From Verrucomicrobiota bacterium (lineage in GTDB: Bacteria; Chlamydiota; Chlamydiia; Chlamydiales; SM23-39): 64,000 nucleotides of DNA. Below are positions 13,960 to 64,000 of this stretch, piece by piece. Both the position numbers and the translations under genes were made by a program. The stretch is from the NCBI GenBank assembly GCA_018968815.1, contig JAGWZL010000001.1:61178-125177 (forward strand). Direction: 5' to 3'. Under the pieces are notes generated by a model. That model was not told the DNA's origin. It did not search any database and saw nothing but the letters and a program-made list of their open reading frames with translations. Position 1 is the stretch's first letter; every line of letters begins with the position of its first letter.

Positions 13960-18784
<4,825 letters not shown>

Positions 18785-21494: not shown

Positions 21495-24400
21495 TCAATC
21501 GAAATTCGCTTGCCAGCACTGTCGTTTCATGACGGGGATGACTTCAAAGCGATAAATGGGCTGATAGATTTGCCAATCTCTTAAACCGCAGGGGCGCAGA
21601 TTTTGTTTTGAGAGTTGGTAGAGGGGCAAATTGACGATAAACGTGGCTTCCCAGATGGGTCCGAACAGGGGGTCATATCGTCCGCTGAGGTCCAAGGCGA
21701 GGTAATCGCGATATTTGGGCATGATTCTTCCCTGAACGCCGACGGTGCTGTGGGAGGTGGCTTGATTTTTGGCAATGAAGTAGATTCCTGCGACGGCTTC
21801 TAGGGAAAACAGTTTGCCGTTGATGATTAAATAACCCACTTCTTGATTGAAGGCGTACGCGATCGATTCAATTGAATCGCTGATGGCAAAATAGCCGCCT
21901 TGATACTGATCATACGTGCATCTCCAGAGTTTTCTTTTCTTTCCGAAGGGGGCGTAGACGTTGCCTCGGAAGTTCCATCGTCTGCCCAATATTTCTAATC
22001 CTGCTCCGAGCTGATTGAAATAGCCGATGGATCCTTGTCGGTAATCGTAATACACATTAAATCCTAGCATTTCGCAGAAACCGGAAGATGCATCGGGAAC
22101 GAATCGTCCTCCTACGCCGGCATTTGTGGCGTAGGTATTATTGGCAAATCGGTGTCCTCTGAGGTCGATGAATGGGTAGATATGGCCTGGGCGATATTTG
22201 GGCGCCATGAAAATATCCAGTGTTGCAAAATTGGTTGCAAGGGGAAGGCAATGGCATTCCTGAGATCCCCAGACGTAGCTCATGGTCAACCGTCTGGGCC
22301 AGAAGGAAGCCATCGTGGATTGATGCGAGACTTCTGGGGGGCTTGTTGTCTCTTTCTGTGATGATTTTGGGTGGGAACGAGTTGCTGTTGGCGGCGCTGG
22401 CCTTTCTGTGACTGGTTCCATTGCCATGTGATCAAGCATAGGGGTGTGCCATAGTTCTTCTGGGATGCATTGTGGATAGCTTTCGATGCGATCCGCAATG
22501 CCAAGGACGCCGAAGGGGAACTCGTTCATTTGCGGATCGGTCAGCGGATCCATGACCCATGTGCTTTCTTGGGCTTCCAATAAATGGCACGCCACCCAAT
22601 ATTCTCGATCTGTGCTTGGGGCCTCTTCTCCGCATGCTGTCTCTTCGAATGCAGAAGATGCCCAATGGGTCTCTTCTGCGGGTTGTTGCACAATTTCGGT
22701 GGGCGCTTCGTGGATCATGGGCGCCTCTTCCAATGGCGCCTCACTGCTTGCCACATCGCTGGGTTCTGGGCATGACAACTCTGCCAACTGCACCTGAGAG
22801 GGAGCTGCTTCCGGCATATCGATGAATGGCTCTCGAGTAGCGACCCCATCGATCAAGCAATCGCTAGGTTCTGGGCATGACAACTCTGCAAATTGCACCT
22901 GAGAGGGGGCCTCTTCCGGCACGTCGATGAATCGCTCTCGAGTAGCGACCCCATCGATCAAACAATCGCTGGGTTCTGGGCACGACAACTCTGCAAACCG
23001 CACCTGAGAGGGTGCCTCTTCCGGCATGTCGATGAATGGCTCTCGCGTAGCGACCCCATCGATCAAACAATCGCTAGGTTCTGGGCATGACAACTCTGCA
23101 AATTGCACCTGGGAAGGAGCCTCTTCTGGCATGTCGATGAATCGCTCTCGAGTAGCGACCCCATCGATCAAGCAATCGCTAGGTTCTGGGCACGACAACT
23201 CTGCAAACTGCACCTGAGAGGGAGCCTCTTCTGGCATGTCGATGAATGGCTCTCGAGTAGCGACCCCATCGATCAAACAATCGCTAGGTTCTGGGCACGA
23301 CAACTCTGCAAACTGCATCTGAGAGGGAGCCTCTTCTGGCATGTCGATGAATCGCTCTGTTGTAAATGCAATTTCATCCATCCAGAAGTCGCTCGGTTCT
23401 GGGCAAGTCAACTCCGCAAACAGAATGAGAGGGAGAGAACTTTCTGGAATGTCTACAAACCGCTCTTTGGTCAAGGCGATTCCGTCCATCCAGAAGTCGT
23501 TCGGCTCTGGGCAGGTCAATGTAGCAAACCGGATTTCTCGCAACGGGACCACAGGCTCTGGAGCGAATGACTCTTTGGTAAAGGCGATCCCATCCATCCA
23601 GAAGTCGCTCGGTTCTGGGCAGGTCAATGCAGCAAACCGGATTTGCCGCAACGGGACCACAGGCTCCGGAGCGAACGGCTCTTTGGTAAATGCGATTCCG
23701 TCCATCCAGAAGTCGCTCGGTTCTGGGCAGGTCAATGCAGCAAACCGGATTTGCCGCAGCGGGACTACAGGCTCCGGAGCGAACGGCTCTTTGGTAAATG
23801 CGATTCCGTCCATCCAGAAGTCGCTCGGTTCTGGGCAGGTCAATGCCGCAAACCGGATTTGCCGCAGCGGGACTACAGGCTCCGGAGCGAACGGCTCTTT
23901 GGTAAATGCGATTCCGTCCATCCAGAAGTCGCTCGGCTCTGGGCAGGTCAATGCAGCAAACCGGATTTGCCGCAGCGGGACTACAGGCTCCGGAGCGAAT
24001 GACTCTTTGGTAAATGCGATTCCATCCATCCAGAAGTCGCTCGGTTCTGGGCAGGTCAATGCAGCAAACCGGATTTGCCGCAGCGGGACTACAGGCTCCG
24101 GAGCGAATGACTCTTTGGTAAATGCGATTCCGTCCATCCAGAAGTCGCTCGGTTCTGGGCAAGTCAGTTCAGCAAACCGGATTTGTCGCAGCGGGACTAC
24201 AGGCACCGGAGCGAATGACTCTTTGGTAAATGCGATGCCGTCCATCCAAAAAGGGCTTGGCTCTGGGCAAGTCAGTGCAGCAAACTGAATCTGTCGCAAC
24301 AAGACCACAGGCTCCGGAGCAAACGGCTCTTTGGCGAAGGCGATTCCGTCCATCCAGAAAGGGCTTGGCTCTGGGCAGGTCAATTCAGCAAACCGGATTG

Positions 24401-25256
24401 GCCGCAACAAGACCACAGGCTCCGGAGCGAATGGCTCTTTGGCGAAGGCGATTCCGTCCATCCAGAAAGGGCTTGGCTCTGGGCAAGTCAGTTCAGCAAA
24501 TCGAATCTGTCGCAACAAGACCACAGGCTCTGGAGCGAATGACTCTTTGGCGAAGGCGATTCCATCCATCCAGAAAGGGCTTGGCTCTGGGCACGTCAGT
24601 TCAGCAAACCGGATTGGCCGCAACAAGACCACAGGCTCCGGAGCGAATGACTCTTTGGCGAAGGCGATTCCATCCATCCAGAAAGGGCTTGGCTCTGGGC
24701 AGGTCAATTCGGCAAACCGGATTTGCCGCAGTGGGACCACAGGCTCCGGAGCAAATGGTTCTTTCATAAAAACGACCTCGCTCATGGGAAAATCTCTGAG
24801 AGCGGGGCTTACAAGGGGGGCAAGTGGAATGGGCGCTTGGGGTTTTAGTTGAAAAGCAGGATAGTCAAGACCTGTGCAATGAAGATCTACCGGTTCTTCT
24901 ACTTGATATTGCGCCAAAAGAGCCAATCGTGGCGGCCCCACCTGTTGGTGGAGTTTTTGTTCTACGCTTGTCCCAATACGATCGAACTCCTGCTCTGCAT
25001 TGCTGAGATCTTCCATGGGCAGAATAGAGCGTTGGCATGGTTTCTCCATGCATATCTCCCGAGGGACGGGAGTGGACATCAGGAAATACTGCGCAACTCT
25101 TTGATTTCTAGATCCTTTAACAAAGAATGAGTATTCTTGAGATCCGTGGAGGAAGCCGAATTCTAGAAAAAAAGATCCTGGGATCAGGCTTTCGCGATAA
25201 AACACAAGCCATCCAAACACAACGAGAAGAAATAGAAGAATCTTAGCTTTTCTCAA
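21495..25256 (-). CDS. Repeat-rich outer-membrane protein with a C-terminal inverse-autotransporter-type (intimin/invasin-like) beta-barrel
   Basis: N-terminal anchor/signal 'MRKAKILLFLLVVFGWLVFY'. About 13 repeats of 36 aa plus about 5.5 repeats of 35 aa follow. The C-terminal ~274 aa carry 'NAGVGGRF', 'MLGFNVYYDYR' and 'QLGAGLEILGRRWNFRGNVY', and end with the linker-like 'QPIYRFEVIPVMKR'. Confidence 0.85.
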   Translation of the reverse strand: MRKAKILLFLLVVFGWLVFYRESLIPGSFFLEFGFLHGSQEYSFFVKGSRNQRVAQYFLMSTPVPREICMEKPCQRSILPMEDLSNAEQEFDRIGTSVEQKLHQQVGPPRLALLAQYQVEEPVDLHCTGLDYPAFQLKPQAPIPLAPLVSPALRDFPMSEVVFMKEPFAPEPVVPLRQIRFAELTCPEPSPFWMDGIAFAKESFAPEPVVLLRPIRFAELTCPEPSPFWMDGIAFAKESFAPEPVVLLRQIRFAELTCPEPSPFWMDGIAFAKEPFAPEPVVLLRPIRFAELTCPEPSPFWMDGIAFAKEPFAPEPVVLLRQIQFAALTCPEPSPFWMDGIAFTKESFAPVPVVPLRQIRFAELTCPEPSDFWMDGIAFTKESFAPEPVVPLRQIRFAALTCPEPSDFWMDGIAFTKESFAPEPVVPLRQIRFAALTCPEPSDFWMDGIAFTKEPFAPEPVVPLRQIRFAALTCPEPSDFWMDGIAFTKEPFAPEPVVPLRQIRFAALTCPEPSDFWMDGIAFTKEPFAPEPVVPLRQIRFAALTCPEPSDFWMDGIAFTKESFAPEPVVPLREIRFATLTCPEPNDFWMDGIALTKERFVDIPESSLPLILFAELTCPEPSDFWMDEIAFTTERFIDMPEEAPSQMQFAELSCPEPSDCLIDGVATREPFIDMPEEAPSQVQFAELSCPEPSDCLIDGVATRERFIDMPEEAPSQVQFAELSCPEPSDCLIDGVATREPFIDMPEEAPSQVRFAELSCPEPSDCLIDGVATRERFIDVPEEAPSQVQFAELSCPEPSDCLIDGVATREPFIDMPEAAPSQVQLAELSCPEPSDVASSEAPLEEAPMIHEAPTEIVQQPAEETHWASSAFEETACGEEAPSTDREYWVACHLLEAQESTWVMDPLTDPQMNEFPFGVLGIADRIESYPQCIPEELWHTPMLDHMAMEPVTERPAPPTATRSHPKSSQKETTSPPEVSHQSTMASFWPRRLTMSYVWGSQECHCLPLATNFATLDIFMAPKYRPGHIYPFIDLRGHRFANNTYATNAGVGGRFVPDASSGFCEMLGFNVYYDYRQGSIGYFNQLGAGLEILGRRWNFRGNVYAPFGKKRKLWRCTYDQYQGGYFAISDSIESIAYAFNQEVGYLIINGKLFSLEAVAGIYFIAKNQATSHSTVGVQGRIMPKYRDYLALDLSGRYDPLFGPIWEATFIVNLPLYQLSKQNLRPCGLRDWQIYQPIYRFEVIPVMKRQCWQANFD
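22750..24775 (-). repeat. In-frame tandem repeats: ~13 x 108 bp, then ~5.5 x 105 bp
   Basis: The 108-bp period was measured from recurrences of gaagtcgctcgg (23601 and 23709). The 105-bp period was measured from tcgct(a/g)ggttctggg (22861 and 22966). Units encode 'FAELTCPEPS(P/D)FWMDGIAF(A/T)KE(S/P)FAPEPVV(L/P)LRQIR' and 'FAELSCPEPSDCLIDGVATRE(P/R)FIDMPEEAPSQVQ'. Confidence 0.95.
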
Positions 25257-26565: not shown

Positions 26566-26640
26566 TCTGGGTGAGAGGATTTGAACCTCCGACCTCTTGC
26601 ACCCCATGCAAACGCGCTAGCCAAGCTGCGCTACACCCAG
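26566..26640 (-). tRNA. tRNA-Pro (anticodon GGG)
   Basis: Hand-folded cloverleaf. Acceptor CTGGGTG/CACCCAG with C1:G72 (typical of bacterial tRNA-Pro). D-stem GCGC/GCGC. Anticodon stem TTTGC/GCAAG with loop A-T-GGG-G-T. T-arm GGAGG-TTCAAAT-CCTCT. Discriminator A. CCA is not encoded. Confidence 0.9.
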
Positions 26641-27266: not shown

Positions 27267-28616
27267 ATGATTGAGCAGCTACTTGCCGAACACGAAGGCA
27301 AAACAATTGAATTCAAAGAGACAGCCCGTTCTTTAGGCGGGATTATGAGGACGGTAGTCGCCTTTGCAAATAGTGCCGGGGGCACTATTGTCATCGGGGT
27401 AAAGGATAAAACAAAAGAGCTGGTAGGGCTTCCGCAGATTCTTTCTGAAGAAGAACGGCTTGCAAACGCGATTACAGATAGCATCCTGCCTCTTCTCACC
27501 CCTGACATCGAAATTCAGTCCATTCGAGGTAAGGAGCTGCTGGTTATTCGAGTCGCTCACAGCATCGGTCCTCATTATTTGAAGTCTGAGGGACCTGAAC
27601 GAGGTGTCTATGTGCGTTTTGGGTCTACGAATCGTTCGGTAGACGTTGAGATGCTCGATTCATTGCGCCTTTTAGCCAAGAAGGTTTCTTATGATGAGCT
27701 TCCTCACCCGAAAGGAGAGCTCAACGCAGAAATTATGAAAGATGTTTTCGAATGGGTAGGGAAAAGGCCGACAACACAAGTGCTGGAAAATTTGGGCGTA
27801 GAAACTGCTAGCAGTGGTACAAAATATCCCAGTAATGGCGGGGTTCTTCTATTTGGAAGCAATCGGATGCAGCTTTTTCCTGATTCACTGATCCGATGCG
27901 CCCGTTTTGGTGGTTCTAATCGGGAGAAAATTCTAGATCAAGCTGATATTGATGCGCCTCTGCCCCAAGCAGCGGATCTTATCATAGCTTTCATTGAGAG
28001 AAATATTTCAAAAGAAGGTCGAATCGGGCGCATGCAACGCGAAGATATTCCTCAATATCCCTCCGTAGCGATTCGGGAAGCTGTAATGAATGCTTTACTT
28101 CATTCAGATTATGCTATGACCGGATGCCATATTCAAATCGCTATTTTTGATGATCGCATAGAGTTTACAAATCCAGGAGGGCTTCCTTTTGGCCAGACAA
28201 TCGAGAAAGCGCTTGGAGGTTCTTCAAGGATCAGGAATCGTGTTATCGCTCGCGTATTTCGAGAGCTACATCTGATTGAACAATGGGGTTCTGGATTTCG
28301 CCGTATTGTGGAAGCTTGCCGAAGCCAAGGGCTTAAACCTCCTCTCATGGAGGAATTAAATAATCAGTTCAGACTCATTCTTTATTCGGAACAAGTCGAA
28401 GACATAACCATACCTCCGTGGGCACAAAAACTCCTTGAATATCTCAAAAAAGAAAGCGAGATCAGCGCAAAAGCCGCTATGAAACTCTGGGACGTCTCTT
28501 CTCGAACGGCTAGAAATCGCTTGAAACAACTTCAAGAACAAGGAATTATTGTTCGTATTGGGACTTCCGAAAGTGATCCGAGTGCCTCTTATATAGAAGC
28601 AAAACGATCATCATAA
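27267..28616 (+). CDS. AlbA_2 (Schlafen-like) / HATPase_c_4 / wHTH putative transcriptional regulator (COG2865-type)
   Basis: N-terminal 'EGKTIEFKETARSLGGIMRTVVAFANSAGGTIVIGV' is the AlbA_2 'divergent AAA' signature. The middle segment is 'REAVMNALLHSDY...IEFTNPGGL'. The C-terminus is winged-helix-like. Confidence 0.8.
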   Translation: MIEQLLAEHEGKTIEFKETARSLGGIMRTVVAFANSAGGTIVIGVKDKTKELVGLPQILSEEERLANAITDSILPLLTPDIEIQSIRGKELLVIRVAHSIGPHYLKSEGPERGVYVRFGSTNRSVDVEMLDSLRLLAKKVSYDELPHPKGELNAEIMKDVFEWVGKRPTTQVLENLGVETASSGTKYPSNGGVLLFGSNRMQLFPDSLIRCARFGGSNREKILDQADIDAPLPQAADLIIAFIERNISKEGRIGRMQREDIPQYPSVAIREAVMNALLHSDYAMTGCHIQIAIFDDRIEFTNPGGLPFGQTIEKALGGSSRIRNRVIARVFRELHLIEQWGSGFRRIVEACRSQGLKPPLMEELNNQFRLILYSEQVEDITIPPWAQKLLEYLKKESEISAKAAMKLWDVSSRTARNRLKQLQEQGIIVRIGTSESDPSASYIEAKRSS

Positions 28617-47650: not shown

Positions 47651-49804
47651 ATGTGGCGATCTCTGTGGATGGACTTTTTTGCAATATTGAGCTGCGCGCA
47701 AATTTGCACCGCAGAAATGCCGTTCCCAAGGCGGGTGATTTCTTTTTGGGACGGCAAAGCCGACAAATCGGCTGATGATTGCCTCGTTCATAAAACGTTA
47801 GAGATGCCGCTGAATCACCTCGGCATTGACGTCATGTATTCCGATATTCAAGAGCCGCTGCCCCCTCTTTCTCGAGAGGATGGGGTCCTCGGAGTCATTC
47901 TCTGTTTTCGAGACGAGACCAAACGGTGCCGTCCCATTGAGCTCATCGATTGGGCGATCGAGGCGATCGAGCTGGGCAAAAAGGTGCTCATTTTTCGCAA
48001 CGGGGGCTTTTTGGTCGATCAAAACGGCTTTTTCACGCCCATTGATGAGCAAAACCGTTTATTTGAAAGGCTTGGACTTGTCAACTCGGGCCGATGGGTC
48101 GATTACCCTTTTGATTACAAGGTGGTCTATAGCGACTCCGCTCTGATCCCTTTTGAAAGAAATTATTCAGACCCCTTGCCCGGTTTTTATCAGGCCCAAA
48201 ATTTAGGCGCAGCAGAATCCCTCCTGAAGGTCGCCATCCCGGAGCAAAAGGATTCTGAATCCGATTTAATCCTGGTGGGGCCTCATGGCGCCTACGTCGC
48301 GAGCTTATATGAGAATAACTATGAAGACGCAGCGGCGAATACCGATCCGCGAAGCCTAGGATGGCATCTCAACCCCTTCCTCTTTTTCGAAAAGGTGTTT
48401 GAGATCGGCGCGCCCCATCCAATCCCCGATGTGACCACATTAGCGGGAAGGCGCATTTTCTACTCGAGCTGCGATGGAGACAACTGGAAAGGGGCGACGA
48501 CGCTGGAGGACAATCCTGAACAAAATGTGTATTGCGCCGAAATTGTGTTGCAGCAGATCATTCGCCCCTATCCCCATCTTCCCATGTCTATGGGCATCAT
48601 CGCCGCTGTGTTAGATCCTGCATGGGTAGGCGATCCAAAAAGCCAACAAATCGCTCGAGAGTATCTGGCGCTGCCTCAAGTAGAAGCCGCTTCCCACTCG
48701 TATAGCCACCCGTTTGATTGGACTTTTTTTAAAACGGGAGGGCCCGAAAAGGAGATCAAATACCTTCCTCTTTACCCGTATGGCAGTTGGCAAAACAGCT
48801 ATTTAAGTTGGTTTAATGCTCGCCACAAAAACAAAGATTTTGGGGGAGAATCGCTTTCTTGGGGCTATGTCATCCCGAGAGCTTACGCCAATCAACCGTT
48901 TCATCTCGACCTCGAAATTTCTGGGGCCGCCTCTTACATCGATCAATTCGCCCCGCCTGACAATCAGGTGCATCTTTTGCTCTGGCCGGGCGATGGAAAG
49001 CCATGGGCAGAGCCTGTGGCTCTATGCCAAAAGGCTGGCCTAAAAAATCTAGGGGGAGGATTTGTCCGCTTTGATCCCGAATACCCGTCCAATCTCTTCG
49101 TCTATCCGATCGGTCGAAAACCGGGTGGATGGATCCAGCCCTACTCTTCCATGAGTGCAGAGAATTCCTACTCCGAAGGGTGGTCTTCCCGATTTTATGG
49201 ATTTCAATACCTGCCCGCCACCCTGCAAAACACCGAATCGCCTCGCCGCATTAAACCGATTCAACTCTTCTATCACAGCTACTCAGGCGAGTATTTAGCC
49301 AGCCTCAATGCAGTGTTGAAAAACATCGCAGCCATCCAAAAATTGCCCCACATCCCGATCCGAGCCAGCCGCTACTCCGATGTGGCAGAAGGATTTTACT
49401 CCACGGAGATTGTCGAAATAGGCCCGGCCCAATGGAAAATAAAAAATCGCAAGGGGTTGGAAACCGTTCGTTTCGATCATGTAGAAGAGATGAAAATCGA
49501 TTTTGCCCATTCAACAGGAGTGATCGGACAAACAGAACACCAAGGGTCTCTTTACGTCTATCTCGATGCGGCCGTAGATGAACCCATTTTGACTCTCGGA
49601 AATCAGGGGAGCTCTCATCCATACCTCATGGAAAGCAGCTGGGAAATTTGGAATCTTGTGCGCCATGAAGATGAGCTCGCATTCCAAACAAAAGGGTGGG
49701 GACCGCTCATCATGAAATGGAATGTGAATGGCCGTGTCCTCAGCATCGAGAGAGACGATCTTCCCAACAACCAAGAACTGGGATGGAAAGTGAAACTCGA
49801 ATGA
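47651..49804 (+). CDS. Putative polysaccharide deacetylase (CE4-like; PelA deacetylase-region equivalent)
   Basis: It has its own signal peptide ('FFAILSCAQICTA'). 'SSCDGDNW' and 'EAASHSYSHPFDW' resemble CE4 motifs 1 and 2. It is in a different frame from the hydrolase gene, 10 nt downstream. Confidence 0.55.
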   Translation: MWRSLWMDFFAILSCAQICTAEMPFPRRVISFWDGKADKSADDCLVHKTLEMPLNHLGIDVMYSDIQEPLPPLSREDGVLGVILCFRDETKRCRPIELIDWAIEAIELGKKVLIFRNGGFLVDQNGFFTPIDEQNRLFERLGLVNSGRWVDYPFDYKVVYSDSALIPFERNYSDPLPGFYQAQNLGAAESLLKVAIPEQKDSESDLILVGPHGAYVASLYENNYEDAAANTDPRSLGWHLNPFLFFEKVFEIGAPHPIPDVTTLAGRRIFYSSCDGDNWKGATTLEDNPEQNVYCAEIVLQQIIRPYPHLPMSMGIIAAVLDPAWVGDPKSQQIAREYLALPQVEAASHSYSHPFDWTFFKTGGPEKEIKYLPLYPYGSWQNSYLSWFNARHKNKDFGGESLSWGYVIPRAYANQPFHLDLEISGAASYIDQFAPPDNQVHLLLWPGDGKPWAEPVALCQKAGLKNLGGGFVRFDPEYPSNLFVYPIGRKPGGWIQPYSSMSAENSYSEGWSSRFYGFQYLPATLQNTESPRRIKPIQLFYHSYSGEYLASLNAVLKNIAAIQKLPHIPIRASRYSDVAEGFYSTEIVEIGPAQWKIKNRKGLETVRFDHVEEMKIDFAHSTGVIGQTEHQGSLYVYLDAAVDEPILTLGNQGSSHPYLMESSWEIWNLVRHEDELAFQTKGWGPLIMKWNVNGRVLSIERDDLPNNQELGWKVKLE

Positions 49805-59311: not shown

Positions 59312-60385
59312 ATGCCCCATCTGGTCCAACGAGTAGAATTTCGAAAGGAAATGGTGATCGTTCATGTTCTTTTCAAACGCTCGTTTTGGCATTTTGGGAG
59401 GATTCTTTTCTATTTAATCGTCGAAGGGAAAGCGAGACCTGTTTCGAGACGAGTGTATGGGGCGGCATTGCCCAAAGAGAGCGCTCCGTTTTTCTTAACC
59501 TGTCATGAGACGAGAGAGAGGACGAAAGCCGAGTTTATAGGGAATCGATCGGGGGGCGAGGTGCAAATCCCTCTCTCAGCGATCGGTTCTTTTGAGAGGC
59601 TTTACGCTCAAATCGGGGAGCCTTCTGGAGAGACTGTGGAGTCTGCTTGGATTGAGAAATCGCCTTCACCCGCTACGGGTGGGCACATTGTCGCTGTGAT
59701 TCCTTGTTACGATGTGGCCTCTTACTGCGAACCGGTGATTTTGGGAGCGTTGCAGGAGGCGTCTTATGTTGTGGCGATCGATGATGGGTCGACCGATCAG
59801 ACGGCTAGCCTGTTAGACCAAATCGCTCGCGATCATCCTACGCTGCACGTCATCCATTTTGCTCAAAACCAAGGAAAGGGTTCGGCGCTTCTTGCGGGGT
59901 TTAAGTATGCTTTAGAGCATTGGTCTTTTGATGTGTTGGTGACGTTGGATGGGGATGGGCAGCATCGGCCGACAGACATTCCGGCTGTCGCTAAAGAGAT
60001 TTTCACTGGGAAGGAGTTTGCGATTGGCGAAAGAACGTTTGCTTTGATGCCGTGGGTGCGCCGATTTAGCAATTTCTGGATCGCTTTTTTTTTACGGTTT
60101 TTTTATCCCAATGCGCCTATTGATACGCAGTCGGGATTTCGGGCCTTTCATCGAGAGCTTGTCGAGGCGATCACACATCAATTTACAAGTGGGCGCTACG
60201 AAGTGGAATTTCAGATTCTCCTCTATGCGCTGAGCCAACACCGCAAATTTGCCAAGACGACGATTTCGACGATCTATTTAAACCGGAATGTGTCTTCGCA
60301 CTTTTCGGCGTGGAGGGATACCGTTCGCATTTTTCGAGTCTTTTTTCAACATATTGGAGAAATATGCAAAACATCCTCCTCTTAG
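59312..60385 (+). CDS. GT2 glycosyltransferase (DPM1/ArnC-like) with ~125-aa N-terminal extension
   Basis: 'VAVIPCYDVASYC', 'AIDDGSTDQT', 'NQGKGSAL' and 'TLDGDGQH'. The SD aaggagg lies just upstream of the ATG at 59312. Confidence 0.8.
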   Translation: MPHLVQRVEFRKEMVIVHVLFKRSFWHFGRILFYLIVEGKARPVSRRVYGAALPKESAPFFLTCHETRERTKAEFIGNRSGGEVQIPLSAIGSFERLYAQIGEPSGETVESAWIEKSPSPATGGHIVAVIPCYDVASYCEPVILGALQEASYVVAIDDGSTDQTASLLDQIARDHPTLHVIHFAQNQGKGSALLAGFKYALEHWSFDVLVTLDGDGQHRPTDIPAVAKEIFTGKEFAIGERTFALMPWVRRFSNFWIAFFLRFFYPNAPIDTQSGFRAFHRELVEAITHQFTSGRYEVEFQILLYALSQHRKFAKTTISTIYLNRNVSSHFSAWRDTVRIFRVFFQHIGEICKTSSS

Positions 60386-61620
60386 AGCTCAATGAATTCA
60401 ATGTCGATTTGCTCAAAACGGCAGCCAAAGAGTATCCCAACATTCGCAAGCTCGTTTCTCTTCATGAAGTGCAGACGCATACGGACGATACGTATGAAAG
60501 CGATTTTTTAGAGCCTTGGGTGCAGTGGGTTTCCGTGCATACGGGGAGGCCTTCTGCGGAGCATCAGATCAAGCATTTGGGAGATGTTCCCGATCTAGGC
60601 ACCGAGCAGCTTTGGGAGGCTCTTTCCAAGCAAGGGATTACAAGTGGTGTTTGGGGGGCGATGAATGCGAGTCGGGCAGGCGCTGAGAAGTGTCTTTTTT
60701 TTATTCCCGACCCTTGGACTGCCTCAGAGAGGGCTTATCCGGAAGAGCTCAATGATTTACTGGAGCCGCTTCGCTTTGCCTCCAAAAGTTATGCCAAGCC
60801 TAAAATGGCTCAGATTGGCAAGATTTTCAAACTCTTCTCTTCCTATAAACTGCTGGGGAAAGTGATTCGAGAGGCGCCGAGACTTTGCAAAAACATCTTC
60901 CGTTTTCGCGCCGCCCATTGCGTATTTATTTCCTTTTTAGATCTCCTTTCAACGGAGCTTTTTTTAGCCTATAAGAAGAGGTACAACCCTCGATTGTCGG
61001 TACTTTTTTTAAATAGTCTTGCCCATTTGCAACACCATCATTGGCATGCTGGAAGCTCCAAATTGCAAGAGGGGCTCTCCTATATGGACCAGATTTTGGG
61101 GCGGCTCTTTGATTCTTTGGCAGAGGGCGATCTGTTTTTTGTGGCGAACGCTTTATCGCAAAAAAACACTCATGAGGAGCATCCTTGGATTCTCTATCGC
61201 CAAAAAGATCCGCAATCCTTTCCTCAAGCGGTGGGTATGGCGTGCAAGAGAGTGGAGCCGCACATGACTCATGATGCGCATCTGTATTTTGACAATGCGG
61301 AGCAGTGTCAGACAGCGAAGGAGGCGCTGGAGGGGGCGACTCTTTTGGGCCGCAGGCTCTTTTTCGTGGAGACGTATGCCGATCCGTGCAAATTATTTTA
61401 TCGCATCTGTTTTACGGATCCTGTCTCTCAAGACGTCTCGTTTACATTTGCTGGCAAATCGGTGCGGTTTTTTGATCTTTTTCAGGCGATTGTGCAGCGC
61501 ACAGGCAAACATATTCCTTACGGCACAGTGTTTACCAATGCGTCCAATCTTCCTCCATCGATGAAAAACCACGAGTTGTTCCACTATATTGCGCGCGAGC
61601 TTAGAGTTGTTTTTTCATGA
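60364..61620 (+). CDS. Alkaline-phosphatase-superfamily-like protein (function uncertain)
   Basis: 419 aa from the ATG at 60364. 'EPWVQWVSVHTGRPSAEH' and 'LNSLAHLQHHHWH' loosely recall phosphodiesterase/sulfatase-type folds. It overlaps the upstream gene by 22 nt. Confidence 0.5.
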   Translation: MQNILLLELNEFNVDLLKTAAKEYPNIRKLVSLHEVQTHTDDTYESDFLEPWVQWVSVHTGRPSAEHQIKHLGDVPDLGTEQLWEALSKQGITSGVWGAMNASRAGAEKCLFFIPDPWTASERAYPEELNDLLEPLRFASKSYAKPKMAQIGKIFKLFSSYKLLGKVIREAPRLCKNIFRFRAAHCVFISFLDLLSTELFLAYKKRYNPRLSVLFLNSLAHLQHHHWHAGSSKLQEGLSYMDQILGRLFDSLAEGDLFFVANALSQKNTHEEHPWILYRQKDPQSFPQAVGMACKRVEPHMTHDAHLYFDNAEQCQTAKEALEGATLLGRRLFFVETYADPCKLFYRICFTDPVSQDVSFTFAGKSVRFFDLFQAIVQRTGKHIPYGTVFTNASNLPPSMKNHELFHYIARELRVVFS

Positions 61621-62563
61621 CAGCGATTGTTTGTTTGAGCGTCTCTTCCAGGGGAATTTTGGGTTTAAAACCGGTGAGTTTCTCTAGTTTTTCTAGATTG
61701 GGTTTGCTTCGCATGACTTCTTTGTATTCATATCCGTAGGCTTTTTGATAAGGCACAAAGGAGATTTCGGAGCGGCTGTTGCAGAGTTTTTTGATCCATG
61801 TGGCAAGCTCGATGATGGAGATTTCTTCCTCGCTGCCAATATTGACAATTTGACCATTGGCTTGATCTGACTCGAGGAGTAAGTGGAGCGCTTGGACTAC
61901 GTCATCCACGTGGCAAAAGGTCCGTTTTTGTTGCCCATTGCCATAGACTGTCAGGGGTTCTTCTTTCAAAGCTTGTTCAACGAGTCTTGGGATGATCATT
62001 CCCTTTGGGCTCCGCTGATTGGGGCCGGCGACATTGAAAATGCGGGGAATGGCGCAGAAAAGGCTTTTTTCTTCGATGTAGGCATGGGCAGTCAATTCAT
62101 TGATTATTTTGCTCATCCGATAACTTTGCTGTCTCCAGTGTCCGGGGGGGATCTGCAAGGTTGCATCTTCACGAGACGCTGGTTCGCCGGAATAGACTCC
62201 AGAGGACGAGGCGATTGTCAAGCGGGCCCGGCTTTTTGTCTCCGCCATCAGTTCCAAGATGCATTCGCAGCTCTGGATGTTTTGCGAGAGAGTCGCGATG
62301 GGATTTTTCAAGATCACATGGTAACCCAAAATGCTTGCCATATGGTAGATCCTGTCGGCCCATCTCACGGCTTCTGTCAATTCAGGAGATTTGTGGAGCT
62401 CTTGCATGAAAAACTGAAAATGCGCGTGACCCAAATCGGGTAGCGTCTCTTTTTTGCCTGCGAAACAGCTATCGAATGCGCGGACTTGATCCCCTCTTTT
62501 CAGATGAAAATCGACGAGATGAGAGCCGATAAAACCTGCGCCGCCGGTGACTACGATATGCAT
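61601..62563 (-). CDS. NAD-dependent sugar-nucleotide epimerase/dehydratase (extended SDR)
   Basis: 'MHIVVTGGAGFIGSHLV' Rossmann motif and catalytic 'YRMSK'. The start was set to the ATG at 62563. Confidence 0.9.
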   Translation of the reverse strand: MHIVVTGGAGFIGSHLVDFHLKRGDQVRAFDSCFAGKKETLPDLGHAHFQFFMQELHKSPELTEAVRWADRIYHMASILGYHVILKNPIATLSQNIQSCECILELMAETKSRARLTIASSSGVYSGEPASREDATLQIPPGHWRQQSYRMSKIINELTAHAYIEEKSLFCAIPRIFNVAGPNQRSPKGMIIPRLVEQALKEEPLTVYGNGQQKRTFCHVDDVVQALHLLLESDQANGQIVNIGSEEEISIIELATWIKKLCNSRSEISFVPYQKAYGYEYKEVMRSKPNLEKLEKLTGFKPKIPLEETLKQTIAVMKKQL

Positions 62564-62760
62564 TTTTCTATATGTAGCGCGAGACCACTTCTTGAGCAAG
62601 AAAAAATAGCTGTCCATAGGATGCTTGGGCTTAACCCCCCCCATTCCGCTCTAGGTTATTTGTAAGTCGTTGATTATTATTGAGAAGAGACAAAAACCAA
62701 GGGTTTGTCATATTATTGTTTCAATGCTGCCGTTATAGTTTCTGACGCATAAAATATCTG

Positions 62761-62789
62761 TTGACGGAATTTTTACAATGATTTAAAAT
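62761..62789 (+). promoter_or_regulatory. Sigma-70-type promoter for the WD40 gene
   Basis: -35 TTGACG (62761-62766), 17-nt spacer, -10 TAAAAT (62784-62789), 28 nt upstream of the ATG at 62818, in an AT-rich spacer. Confidence 0.5.
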
Positions 62790-62817
62790 TATTGCAATAA
62801 TTTAAATCGTTTTGCAT

Positions 62818-64000
62818 ATGATTCATCTCGCTAATGTCACTCAGTCCTCCCATGCATCAGGGGTAACATCTCAGAACGTTGATGCATTGTCGAAGATCAA
62901 TTGGGTGCCGTTGGGGTTTATTATAGGGTATCTGCCGCCAGGTGAGGGAGTGAGGCTCAGCAAACTGAGCCGGTCTTTCCTGAAGAAGTTTGAAGAGTAT
63001 ATGATGATATCACGCCATGGGTATGAAGCGCTCACGCTACCCCGAGAATTGATGTCATCCTCAGGATTGACAGCCACAGCAGTGACAGACTTAAAAGAAC
63101 GGATCTTCAAGCAAAGAAGAATTCAATGGATAAGAGCGTACGTGGAAGAAATGTTACCGCGCCGTTACATCTTAAATGGTGGGGATACGGATGCGGTGGA
63201 GTGTCTCGCCTTTTCTCCAGATGGAGCGTGTTTTGCGACGGGATCTGTTGATGGGACAATCAAAATGTGGGATGTAGACACGCGCCGCTGCCTTGCTACT
63301 TTACGTAAGCATACGGATGTGGTGCAGCATATCGTCTTTTCTTCAGATGGAAAGCGTTTTACGACGACATCTATTGACGGGACAGTCAAATCATGGGATG
63401 TAGGCACGCGCCGCTGCCTTGCTGATTTAAATCAGGATCAGAGGAAGATGGACATCGCCTTTTCTCTAGATGGAACGCGTTTTGCGACGGTATCTGAGGA
63501 AGGCATAGTTACAATACAGGATGTAGCCACAGGCGGCACCATGACTACTGTAGGTGGGATTAAGCATCACGTGGCGCGCGTCGCCTTTTCTCCAGATGGA
63601 AAGCTTCTTGCGACGGCATCTTGGGGCAACACAGCCCAAATATGGGATGTAGCCACGGGCGTCCGCCTTGCTACTTTAAGTGGGCATACGGCTACGGTGA
63701 CGTATCTCGCCTTTTCTCAAGATGGAAAGCTTCTTGCGACGGGATCTGCTGACAAGACGGCCAAAATATGGGATATAGCAAAGGAAGCCTCCCTTGTTGC
63801 CACTTTATGTGGGCATACGTATTGGGTGGTGTATCTCGCCTTTTCTCCAGATGGAAAGTATCTTGCGACGGTATCTTGGGACCACACAATCAAACTATGG
63901 GATGTAGACAAACGCTGCTGCCTTGATACTTTACTTGAGCGTACGCATGGCGTAACGCCGCATCATGTCGCTTTTTCTCCAGATGGAACGCTTCTTGCGA
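62818..64000 (+). CDS. F-box-like / WD40-repeat protein (partial, runs off the window)
   Basis: Hand translation from the ATG at 62818 is open to the window end, and it is absent from the ORF track because no stop is reached. Six full and one partial WD40 units are present ('LAFSPDGKLLATGSADKTAKIWDI' etc.). The N-terminal 'VPLGFIIGYLPPGEGVRLSKLSRSFLKKF' is F-box-like. Confidence 0.85.
   Translation, partial: MIHLANVTQSSHASGVTSQNVDALSKINWVPLGFIIGYLPPGEGVRLSKLSRSFLKKFEEYMMISRHGYEALTLPRELMSSSGLTATAVTDLKERIFKQRRIQWIRAYVEEMLPRRYILNGGDTDAVECLAFSPDGACFATGSVDGTIKMWDVDTRRCLATLRKHTDVVQHIVFSSDGKRFTTTSIDGTVKSWDVGTRRCLADLNQDQRKMDIAFSLDGTRFATVSEEGIVTIQDVATGGTMTTVGGIKHHVARVAFSPDGKLLATASWGNTAQIWDVATGVRLATLSGHTATVTYLAFSQDGKLLATGSADKTAKIWDIAKEASLVATLCGHTYWVVYLAFSPDGKYLATVSWDHTIKLWDVDKRCCLDTLLERTHGVTPHHVAFSPDGTLLA

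Follow-up and report, generated by a model that had tools for sequence, protein, structure and literature searches.

At the end of a 64,000-nt window of contig JAGWZL010000001.1 (the window being the whole stretch of DNA that was analysed), a gene was revealed that encodes a 121-residue N-terminal region followed by an array of WD40 repeats. The preliminary description of this DNA had taken the product for a eukaryote-like F-box/WD40 protein and a candidate effector acting on the ubiquitin system of a host. According to our analysis it is probably a WD40 beta-propeller protein of the bacterial PkwA type and not an F-box protein, with a bacterium of the Planctomycetes-Verrucomicrobia-Chlamydiae (PVC) group, labelled Verrucomicrobia, as its source. 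Two observations are central here: (i) the WD40 part is a bacterial PkwA-type propeller, and (ii) its blades are shown to be young DNA copies of one another that have diverged almost only, or at least mainly, by amino-acid-changing point mutations.

The open reading frame (ORF) starts with an ATG at 62818–62820, directly preceded on the 5' side by an in-frame stop codon. As had been described, it runs off the window: it stays open up to position 64000, that is for 394 codons (394 amino acids) without a frameshift, and the neighbouring reading frames are crowded with stop codons. A Shine-Dalgarno sequence was not found before this ATG; since most genes of the window also lack one, its absence was not counted against the start. 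The GC content of the ORF is 0.494 and that of the window 0.490. The region before the blades is present as described but is 121 residues long rather than about 115.

Residues 122–394 comprise six full WD40 units and the start of a seventh, as originally proposed, with a start-to-start spacing of 123–132 nt (Table 1). The Pfam WD40 profile (PF00400) matched them with 186 bits vs a cut-off of 27 bits (E = 2.5e-56) and with five separately significant stretches, and numerous other propeller families matched this part as well. AlphaFold, run on the single sequence, gave four strands per unit with a predicted local distance difference test score (pLDDT) of 70–90 over residues 126–373; the modelled propeller is unclosed, the ORF being cut. 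When this model was compared with the PDB using Foldseek, solved WD40 propellers were matched at E of about 1e-24. The closest of them by sequence were PkwA of Thermomonospora curvata (42% identity), the Nostoc protein 2YMU and designer propellers based on proteins of this kind, and no FBXW chain was present within the top 50.

A collection of 5.8 billion proteins yielded 7496 matches. Many of the best 120 of these are nameless; the named ones are overwhelmingly bacterial, with one fungal and one archaeal entry, and belong to cyanobacteria, Planctomycetes, Actinobacteria and other phyla (e.g., Nostoc, Tolypothrix, Actinomadura, Gemmataceae, Pirellulales). These named relatives are similar to our protein in the WD40 part only, with 30–47% identity, and their N-termini contain a Ser/Thr kinase, a trypsin-like protease or nothing recognisable. 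PkwA itself is actinobacterial, and the PkwA-type propellers closest to the WD40 part, with 35–47% identity, are mostly cyanobacterial. Two matches with 91% query coverage (P0064 and P0070) were examined as possible relatives of the N-terminal region and rejected as spurious BLAST extensions into trypsin-like domains. Thus, the term "eukaryote-like" is unjustified for the propeller, because its relatives are bacterial and the GC content of the ORF matches that of the window; a recent transfer from a eukaryote was ruled out on the same two grounds.

With PkwA-type propellers (PkwA, PDB 5YZV; Nostoc punctiforme, PDB 2YMU), which are among the best matches both by fold and by sequence, the protein shares the repeat type (xAFSPDGKxLASGS...IKLWD), 42% identity to PkwA over about 265 residues and a high internal repeat similarity. 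It differs from them in two respects. PkwA and most of its relatives begin with a recognisable domain, such as a Ser/Thr kinase or a protease, whereas here this place is taken by 121 orphan residues; and the internal amino-acid identity is lower (mean 0.44), though the synonymous divergence is low.

Comparison of the blades at the DNA level revealed a similarity beyond that required by the protein sequence. This similarity is even stronger than had been claimed, but the reported identical stretches of 30–35 nt were overstated: the 34-mer quoted as an example has one exact occurrence, two further copies carry 1 and 2 mismatches, and the longest exact stretches common to blades are 23, 23, 22, 20 and 19 nt. 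Residues identical between two blades are encoded by the same codon in 288 of 310 cases (93%), compared with 107 (34%) expected from the codon usage of the genome and 128 from the gene's own usage. Pairwise synonymous divergence (dS) between blades is 0.06–0.41 and non-synonymous divergence (dN) 0.26–0.70. The pooled proportions of synonymous (pS) and non-synonymous (pN) differences are 0.14 and 0.36, and their ratio pN/pS is 2.5 (bootstrap 95% interval 1.7–4.3), with values of 1 or below in none of 5000 replicates. Identity is 0.82 at codon position 3 vs 0.62–0.64 at positions 1 and 2. Where two blades differ in the residue (344 codon pairs), 73% of the pairs still have the same third base, vs 26% ± 3% expected from 1000 codon re-drawings (maximum 37%), and 52% of codon pairs for different residues are separated by a single-nucleotide difference vs 22% expected. 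Recent intragenic duplication or conversion among the blades, which had been suggested before, is supported by this DNA-level similarity.

The core residues of the blades (FS-DG, T, S, D, WD) are retained in nearly all of them, and the pairwise amino-acid identity of the six blades averages 0.44 (range 0.27–0.63). The third blade does not contain GH and has Q instead of W in the WD dipeptide; its identity to the other blades is 27–37%, and its dS is the highest of all. Such a unit may be older than the rest or may have escaped homogenisation.

The variability of the blades is concentrated in two pairs of positions. On either side of the conserved V6, where strand a begins, lie columns 5 and 7, in which no two of the six blades share a residue; columns 23 and 25, with five and four residues, enclose the conserved D24 of the b–c turn in the same way. 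Allowing for a two-residue numbering offset, these columns are equivalent to codons 7, 9, 25 and 27 in the Podospora HET-E/NWD repeats, which are under positive diversifying selection, belong to the top interaction face and flank the purified positions 8 and 26 (Paoletti et al., 2007, PMC1805685). Similarly, in young prokaryotic WD40 proteins most sites are conserved and the predicted top-face hotspot sites are diverse (Hu et al., 2017, PMC5587647). By this correspondence, the most variable blade residues are shown to line the predicted top, ligand-binding face of the propeller.

It can be hypothesized that the blade array arises and stays similar via intragenic tandem duplication, unequal recombination or gene conversion, while changes of residue on the binding face are selected for. 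The propeller is then probably a fast-evolving protein-binding surface that serves for recognition or as a scaffold, and the helical N-terminal region would provide oligomerisation or partner docking, a LisH-like or coiled-coil-like role being as plausible as any.

The protein is also close to the class of young repetitive prokaryotic WD40 proteins (Hu et al., 2017, PMC5587647), with which it shares recent repeat-level duplication, seen as low dS, and variability at the top-face hotspots. In that study internal identity of at least 0.4 defines moderately and of at least 0.7 highly repetitive proteins, using a whole-protein measure; our mean of 0.44 would fall at the moderately repetitive level as a simple mean of six blades. 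Our protein differs from that class in that dS is low despite the moderate identity and the blades evolve unusually fast at the protein level (pN/pS 2.5). In addition, it originates from a Verrucomicrobia-labelled metagenome-assembled genome (MAG), whereas such proteins are commonest in Cyanobacteria or Planctomycetes.

The WD40 arrays of the fungal HET-E, HET-D and NWD proteins (PMC1805685; Chevanne et al., 2010, PMC2873952) are also composed of DNA-similar repeats with a non-synonymous excess and have the same two most-variable pairs (codons 7/9 and 25/27 there, columns 5/7 and 23/25 here). However, these proteins are STAND (signal transduction ATPases with numerous domains) nucleoside triphosphatases (NTPases) with a HET + NACHT + WD40 organization and form a multigene family with inter-gene exchange, whereas here neither an NTPase nor a paralogue was seen and divergence extends outside the four sites. 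We consider it distinctly unlikely that the protein is a sensor of non-self or of invaders, similar to STAND proteins and to nucleotide-binding leucine-rich-repeat (NLR) receptors or belonging to another conflict system, in which the hypervariable propeller would sense a phage or competitor protein and the N-terminus would be a novel effector or signalling domain. Such a role would fit with the young copies, with pN/pS above 1 and with the four variable positions shared with the fungal receptors (PMC1805685), and repeat-bearing bacterial NLR-like proteins show the same signature of repeat evolution. There is also a weak PADLOC match to the candidate defence protein HEAT-ARM_XIII (E = 3e-14), due solely to a WD-type stretch. 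On the other hand, no NACHT, NB-ARC or other P-loop NTPase was revealed between the N-terminus and the repeats, and thus the protein is not a STAND/NLR-type receptor; the 121 residues before the first blade match no family of Pfam, NCBIfam or PADLOC; the adjoining genes include no defence genes, the neighbours being genes of polysaccharide synthesis; and no paralogues of the gene were found within the window.

The N-terminal region was the part on which the F-box proposal had been based, and it was analyzed by several methods. The peptide quoted as F-box-like is present, but residues 1–121 matched no Pfam family, and even at E ≤ 10 no F-box family of Pfam (PF00646, PF12937 and related ones) was reported for these residues or for four sub-fragments centred on the proposed stretch. 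Searches of residues 1–121 against NCBIfam and PADLOC gave no match, nor did a phmmer search against all PDB sequences at E ≤ 10. A control query consisting of the F-box and linker of human FBXW7 (exactly matching PDB 2OVP) revealed 33 distinct F-box sequences at E ≤ 1 in the same PDB search, among them the effector AnkB of Legionella with E = 0.0025.

Profile comparisons gave the same result. When the N-terminus was aligned with a five-member F-box alignment, hhalign reported a probability of 0.5% and an E-value of 0.12; the best register placed residues 35–54 (IIGYLPPGEGVRLSKLSRSF) on F-box columns 9–28, which is the register suggested earlier. A hidden Markov model (HMM) of the F-box was built from 109 sequences, 104 of them retrieved from a protein database and five used as seeds (three of the five unverified). 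With all filters off the N-terminus scored −0.6 bits against it, a value equalled or exceeded by 671 of 5000 composition-preserving shuffles (13%), and the best local match fell outside the proposed stretch. An LPREL motif at residues 74–78, indicated by the seed F-box HMM, was tried as an alternative F-box start and rejected, its hydrophobic/Trp spacing being unfit and its score negative. Direct reading of the peptide showed that it resembles the F-box pattern only if three residues are deleted in or after helix 1, and that the Glu of LPxE is absent.

Relatives of the N-terminal region were also sought regardless of function. When 1.84 billion representative proteins were searched exhaustively with phmmer, a single match was obtained, a 61-residue partial sequence with 100% identity (MBU6446688.1, "hypothetical protein, partial [Verrucomicrobia bacterium]"), which is the same gene in a fragmentary assembly of the same organism. 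A word-indexed protein search for N-terminal relatives gave no match.

Taken together, both computational outcomes that the preliminary description had itself named as refuting were obtained: an F-box score is lacking for the N-terminus, and the propeller belongs to a generic, PkwA-like bacterial population. The F-box-like N-terminus of that description is therefore unsupported. With the F-box, the idea of a host-ubiquitin effector is also left without statistical support in the predicted protein; this idea is unsupported, not disproved. In its explicit form it would mean that a very divergent F-box at residues roughly 28–70, followed by a helical linker, binds host Skp1 and the propeller recruits a host substrate, the secreted protein thereby redirecting the Skp1-Cullin-F-box complex. 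We find this very improbable. It is true that the layout resembles that of FBXW7, beta-TrCP and Cdc4, with about 120 helical residues leading straight into a propeller of seven or more blades; that the best hhalign register agrees with it; that the helices predicted with low confidence by AlphaFold at residues 32–36, 43–48 and 52–64 are compatible with three short helices; that the first 25 residues are, on direct reading, rich in Ser, Thr, Gln and Asn, as in many type III secretion signals; and that host-associated bacteria have well-documented F-box effectors (PMC4209131, PMC7830128). But the similarity to FBXW receptors would end with a short region, predicted as helical with pLDDT below 50, directly before a WD40 propeller: no F-box is detectable by any of the searches described above, the pattern needs the deletion and lacks the Glu, the WD40 part is bacterial in type, and FBXW propellers are missing from the Foldseek top 50.

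The known bacterial F-box effectors (Legionella AnkB/LegU1, chlamydial NEX1/NEX2) are comparable in idea, as a eukaryote-type adaptor is fused there to repeats and the source of our protein belongs to the PVC group. They differ in that their F-boxes are recognised by standard profiles, including Pfam, and are paired with ankyrin repeats, leucine-rich repeats (LRR) or tetratricopeptide repeats (TPR). In particular, the chlamydial NEX families are defined by Pfam F-box domains paired with LRR or TPR, and WD40 is unmentioned (Domman et al., PMC4209131).

The premise that the DNA comes from an amoeba-associated chlamydia was not supported either. NCBI labels the identical neighbouring proteins (PelF, PelG and the epimerase) as belonging to "Verrucomicrobia bacterium" MAGs; in one of these the epimerase (MBU6382799.1) is encoded on a contig of 132,233 bp. 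It should be mentioned that GTDB places Chlamydiia within Verrucomicrobiota, and therefore a chlamydial lineage would still be compatible with the NCBI label taken by itself. The proteins encoded in the window include a Pel exopolysaccharide operon, purB, glucokinase, RecA, ThrRS, one or more hybrid histidine kinases, collagen-like proteins and an inverse-autotransporter-like protein. Nothing specifically chlamydial and nothing pointing to an intracellular or host-associated lifestyle was found in these 64 kb, and there were no secretion-system genes among the window proteins scanned, a view limited to the same 64 kb. The lack of both signs also speaks against the secreted F-box mimic.

Attempts to follow the gene beyond the window gave the following results. 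A search of genome contigs with residues 1–160 revealed unrelated WD40 loci only, and the ORF was not extended; metagenome-contig searches with N-terminal peptides and with the back-translated junction of blades 6 and 7 gave no match. The fragmentary assembly GCA_018971665.1, reached via the epimerase and PelG, contains the gene on a 2386-bp contig that ends at codon 61. This contig is 100% identical over the 601 aligned bases compared, a stretch that takes in the 61 codons present, the spacer and the beginning of the epimerase gene.

Several points weigh against the PkwA-type reading. The protein is incomplete, and its C-terminal part could carry a domain that changes the picture. The N-terminal region is without orthologue or paralogue in any collection searched, and AlphaFold without an alignment, applied to the whole fragment and to the N-terminus alone, gave pLDDT below 50 over residues 1–125; the two runs agree only on helicity, with a long helix at about residues 86–112 abutting the propeller. 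Because of the lack of relatives and the low pLDDT, the fold and role of this region are guesses. All comparisons of blades rest on six blades of one metagenome-assembled sequence, in which repeats can be mis-assembled. The top face was assigned via alignment to published WD40 numbering, and pN/pS is 2.5 outside the presumed top-face columns vs 2.3 on them. Since pN/pS exceeds 1 outside these columns too, the pattern may reflect a loosening of constraint after recent amplification instead of positive selection, and with one sequence the two are inseparable. Finally, the full-length product occurs in no protein collection searched, whereas neighbours from the 132,233-bp contig are recorded; the gene may have been annotated there as a pseudogene or left unannotated.

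Some of these facts would also be expected if the gene were decaying or mis-assembled, that is, if the array were a functionless drifting amplification (a pseudogene) or a chimeric repeat assembly and the N-terminal "domain" were partly non-coding. No full-length protein is on record, pN/pS above 1 is found across the whole blade and not only at the hotspots, the third blade has lost GH and the W of WD, and the N-terminus has no relatives. Still, such an origin is unlikely in our opinion. The frame remains intact among stop-rich alternatives, the structural core residues are kept in nearly all blades, and AlphaFold folds the propeller with pLDDT 70–90 from a single sequence. Moreover, pN/pS is significantly above 1, whereas neutral decay tends to 1, and in an independent assembly the promoter and the initial 61 codons recur with 100% identity.

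The PkwA-type WD40 gene is separated by a spacer of 254 bp from a divergent gene for an NAD-dependent epimerase/dehydratase. The GC content of the spacer is 35% vs 49% for the window. The promoter-like sequence TTGACG-17-TAAAAT noted before is indeed present in this AT-rich spacer, but it is not statistically distinctive: three promoter-like sites were found in the region 62300–63300 vs 1.5 ± 1.0 in shuffles, so that the promoter is plausible by position and not evidence in itself. A palindrome covers both candidate −10 boxes (Table 1). Noticed post hoc, it represents a candidate operator; an equally good palindrome arose in 16 of 5000 shuffled versions of the 254-bp spacer and in 25 of 5000 of its 78-bp AT-rich core. 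The arrangement of the region supports the WD40 gene as a putative independent, divergently transcribed unit with a plausible promoter. It would be transcribed alone from the AT-rich spacer that it shares with the epimerase gene, and the palindrome over the −10 region may control it.

Table 1. Positions of the WD40 gene, its parts and other features in the window
Feature	Position	Strand	Remarks
Orphan N-terminal region	62818..63180	+	codons 1–121; predicted all-alpha, low confidence; holds the proposed F-box-like stretch
Proposed F-box-like stretch VPLGFIIGYLPPGEGVRLSKLSRSFLKKF	62905–62991	+	amino acids 30–58; peptide present as quoted
WD40 blade unit 1	63181..63306	+	amino acids 122–163
WD40 blade unit 2	63307..63429	+	amino acids 164–204
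WD40 blade unit 3	63430..63555	+	amino acids 205–246; most degenerate blade
WD40 blade unit 4	63556..63681	+	amino acids 247–288; reference copy of the 34-nt conserved stretch at 63583–63616
WD40 blade unit 5	63682..63810	+	amino acids 289–331
WD40 blade unit 6	63811..63942	+	amino acids 332–375
WD40 blade unit 7, start only	63943..64000	+	cut by the window end
Copy of the gene start in the second assembly	JAGXAH010000222.1, 1–184 = window 62818–63001		same organism
Promoter-like TTGACG-17 nt-TAAAAT	62761..62789	+	10 of 12 consensus positions; ends 28 nt before the ATG
Overlapping promoter-like TTTACA-18 nt-AATAAT	62772..62801	+	TG before the −10 box; 10 of 12 consensus positions
24-bp palindrome, halves TTAAAATTATTG and CAATAATTTAAA	62783..62806	.	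11 of 12 pairs, no spacer; covers both candidate −10 boxes
19-nt tandem pair	62768–62805		in the promoter region of the WD40 gene
NAD-dependent epimerase/dehydratase gene	61601–62563	-	divergent neighbour of the WD40 gene
TPR PelB-like protein	49696–52491	+	
GAF PelD-like protein	54118–55017	+	
PelF	55970–57448	+	same name at NCBI in a Verrucomicrobia-labelled MAG
PelG	57450–58883	+	same name at NCBI in a Verrucomicrobia-labelled MAG
Collagen-triple-helix repeat protein, first of three consecutive	13960–15474	-	
Collagen-triple-helix repeat protein, second	15474–17021	-	
Collagen-triple-helix repeat protein, third	17058–18620	-	
1253-amino-acid protein	21495–25256	-	inverse-autotransporter beta-domain match
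tRNA gene	26566–26640	-	only Rfam match in the window; nothing near the WD40 gene
Schlafen/AlbA_2 + HATPase_c_4 + HTH protein	27267–28616		about 630 bp from the tRNA gene

Upstream of the WD40 gene a Pel-type exopolysaccharide cluster was revealed (47651–58883, + strand). Downstream of PelG it is followed by genes for a response regulator, a GT2 glycosyltransferase, a type I phosphodiesterase-like protein and the epimerase. The polysaccharide genes near the WD40 gene are on the other strand or upstream, and no functional link is given by this position. As listed, the ORFs of the GT2 glycosyltransferase (59312–60385, + strand) and of the phosphodiesterase-like protein (60310–61620, + strand) overlap by 76 nt, and the GTG start of the latter is probably placed too far upstream.

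At the other side of the window, the genes for the collagen-repeat proteins and the inverse-autotransporter-like protein could form a surface or adhesin locus. As tabulated above, a gene with Schlafen/AlbA_2 and HATPase_c_4 domains lies close to the single tRNA gene. As a rule, tRNA genes commonly serve as insertion sites for mobile or defence islands.

One more interpretation of the whole protein was considered, in which the orphan N-terminus is a new adaptor or effector domain, either an F-box too divergent for profiles or an unrelated module, fused without an NTPase to a positively selected, rapidly diversifying WD40 surface. The product would then be a previously undescribed minimal bacterial recognition protein, aimed at proteins of a eukaryotic host or of phages and competitors. 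We regard this interpretation as quite improbable.

If the PkwA-type reading is correct, the gene represents one more case of a described class, namely bacterial WD40 proteins whose repeats are young and alike and whose top-face residues vary, in this case with an N-terminus that cannot be annotated. The motif-level resemblance to an F-box fails statistical testing and should not be propagated as a "ubiquitin-system effector". At the same time, the array bears an unusually clear signature of fast protein diversification on a nearly unchanged synonymous background, at the positions known from fungal allorecognition receptors. If orthologues confirm diversifying selection, the protein would be a compact bacterial, NTPase-free example of that evolutionary mechanism.

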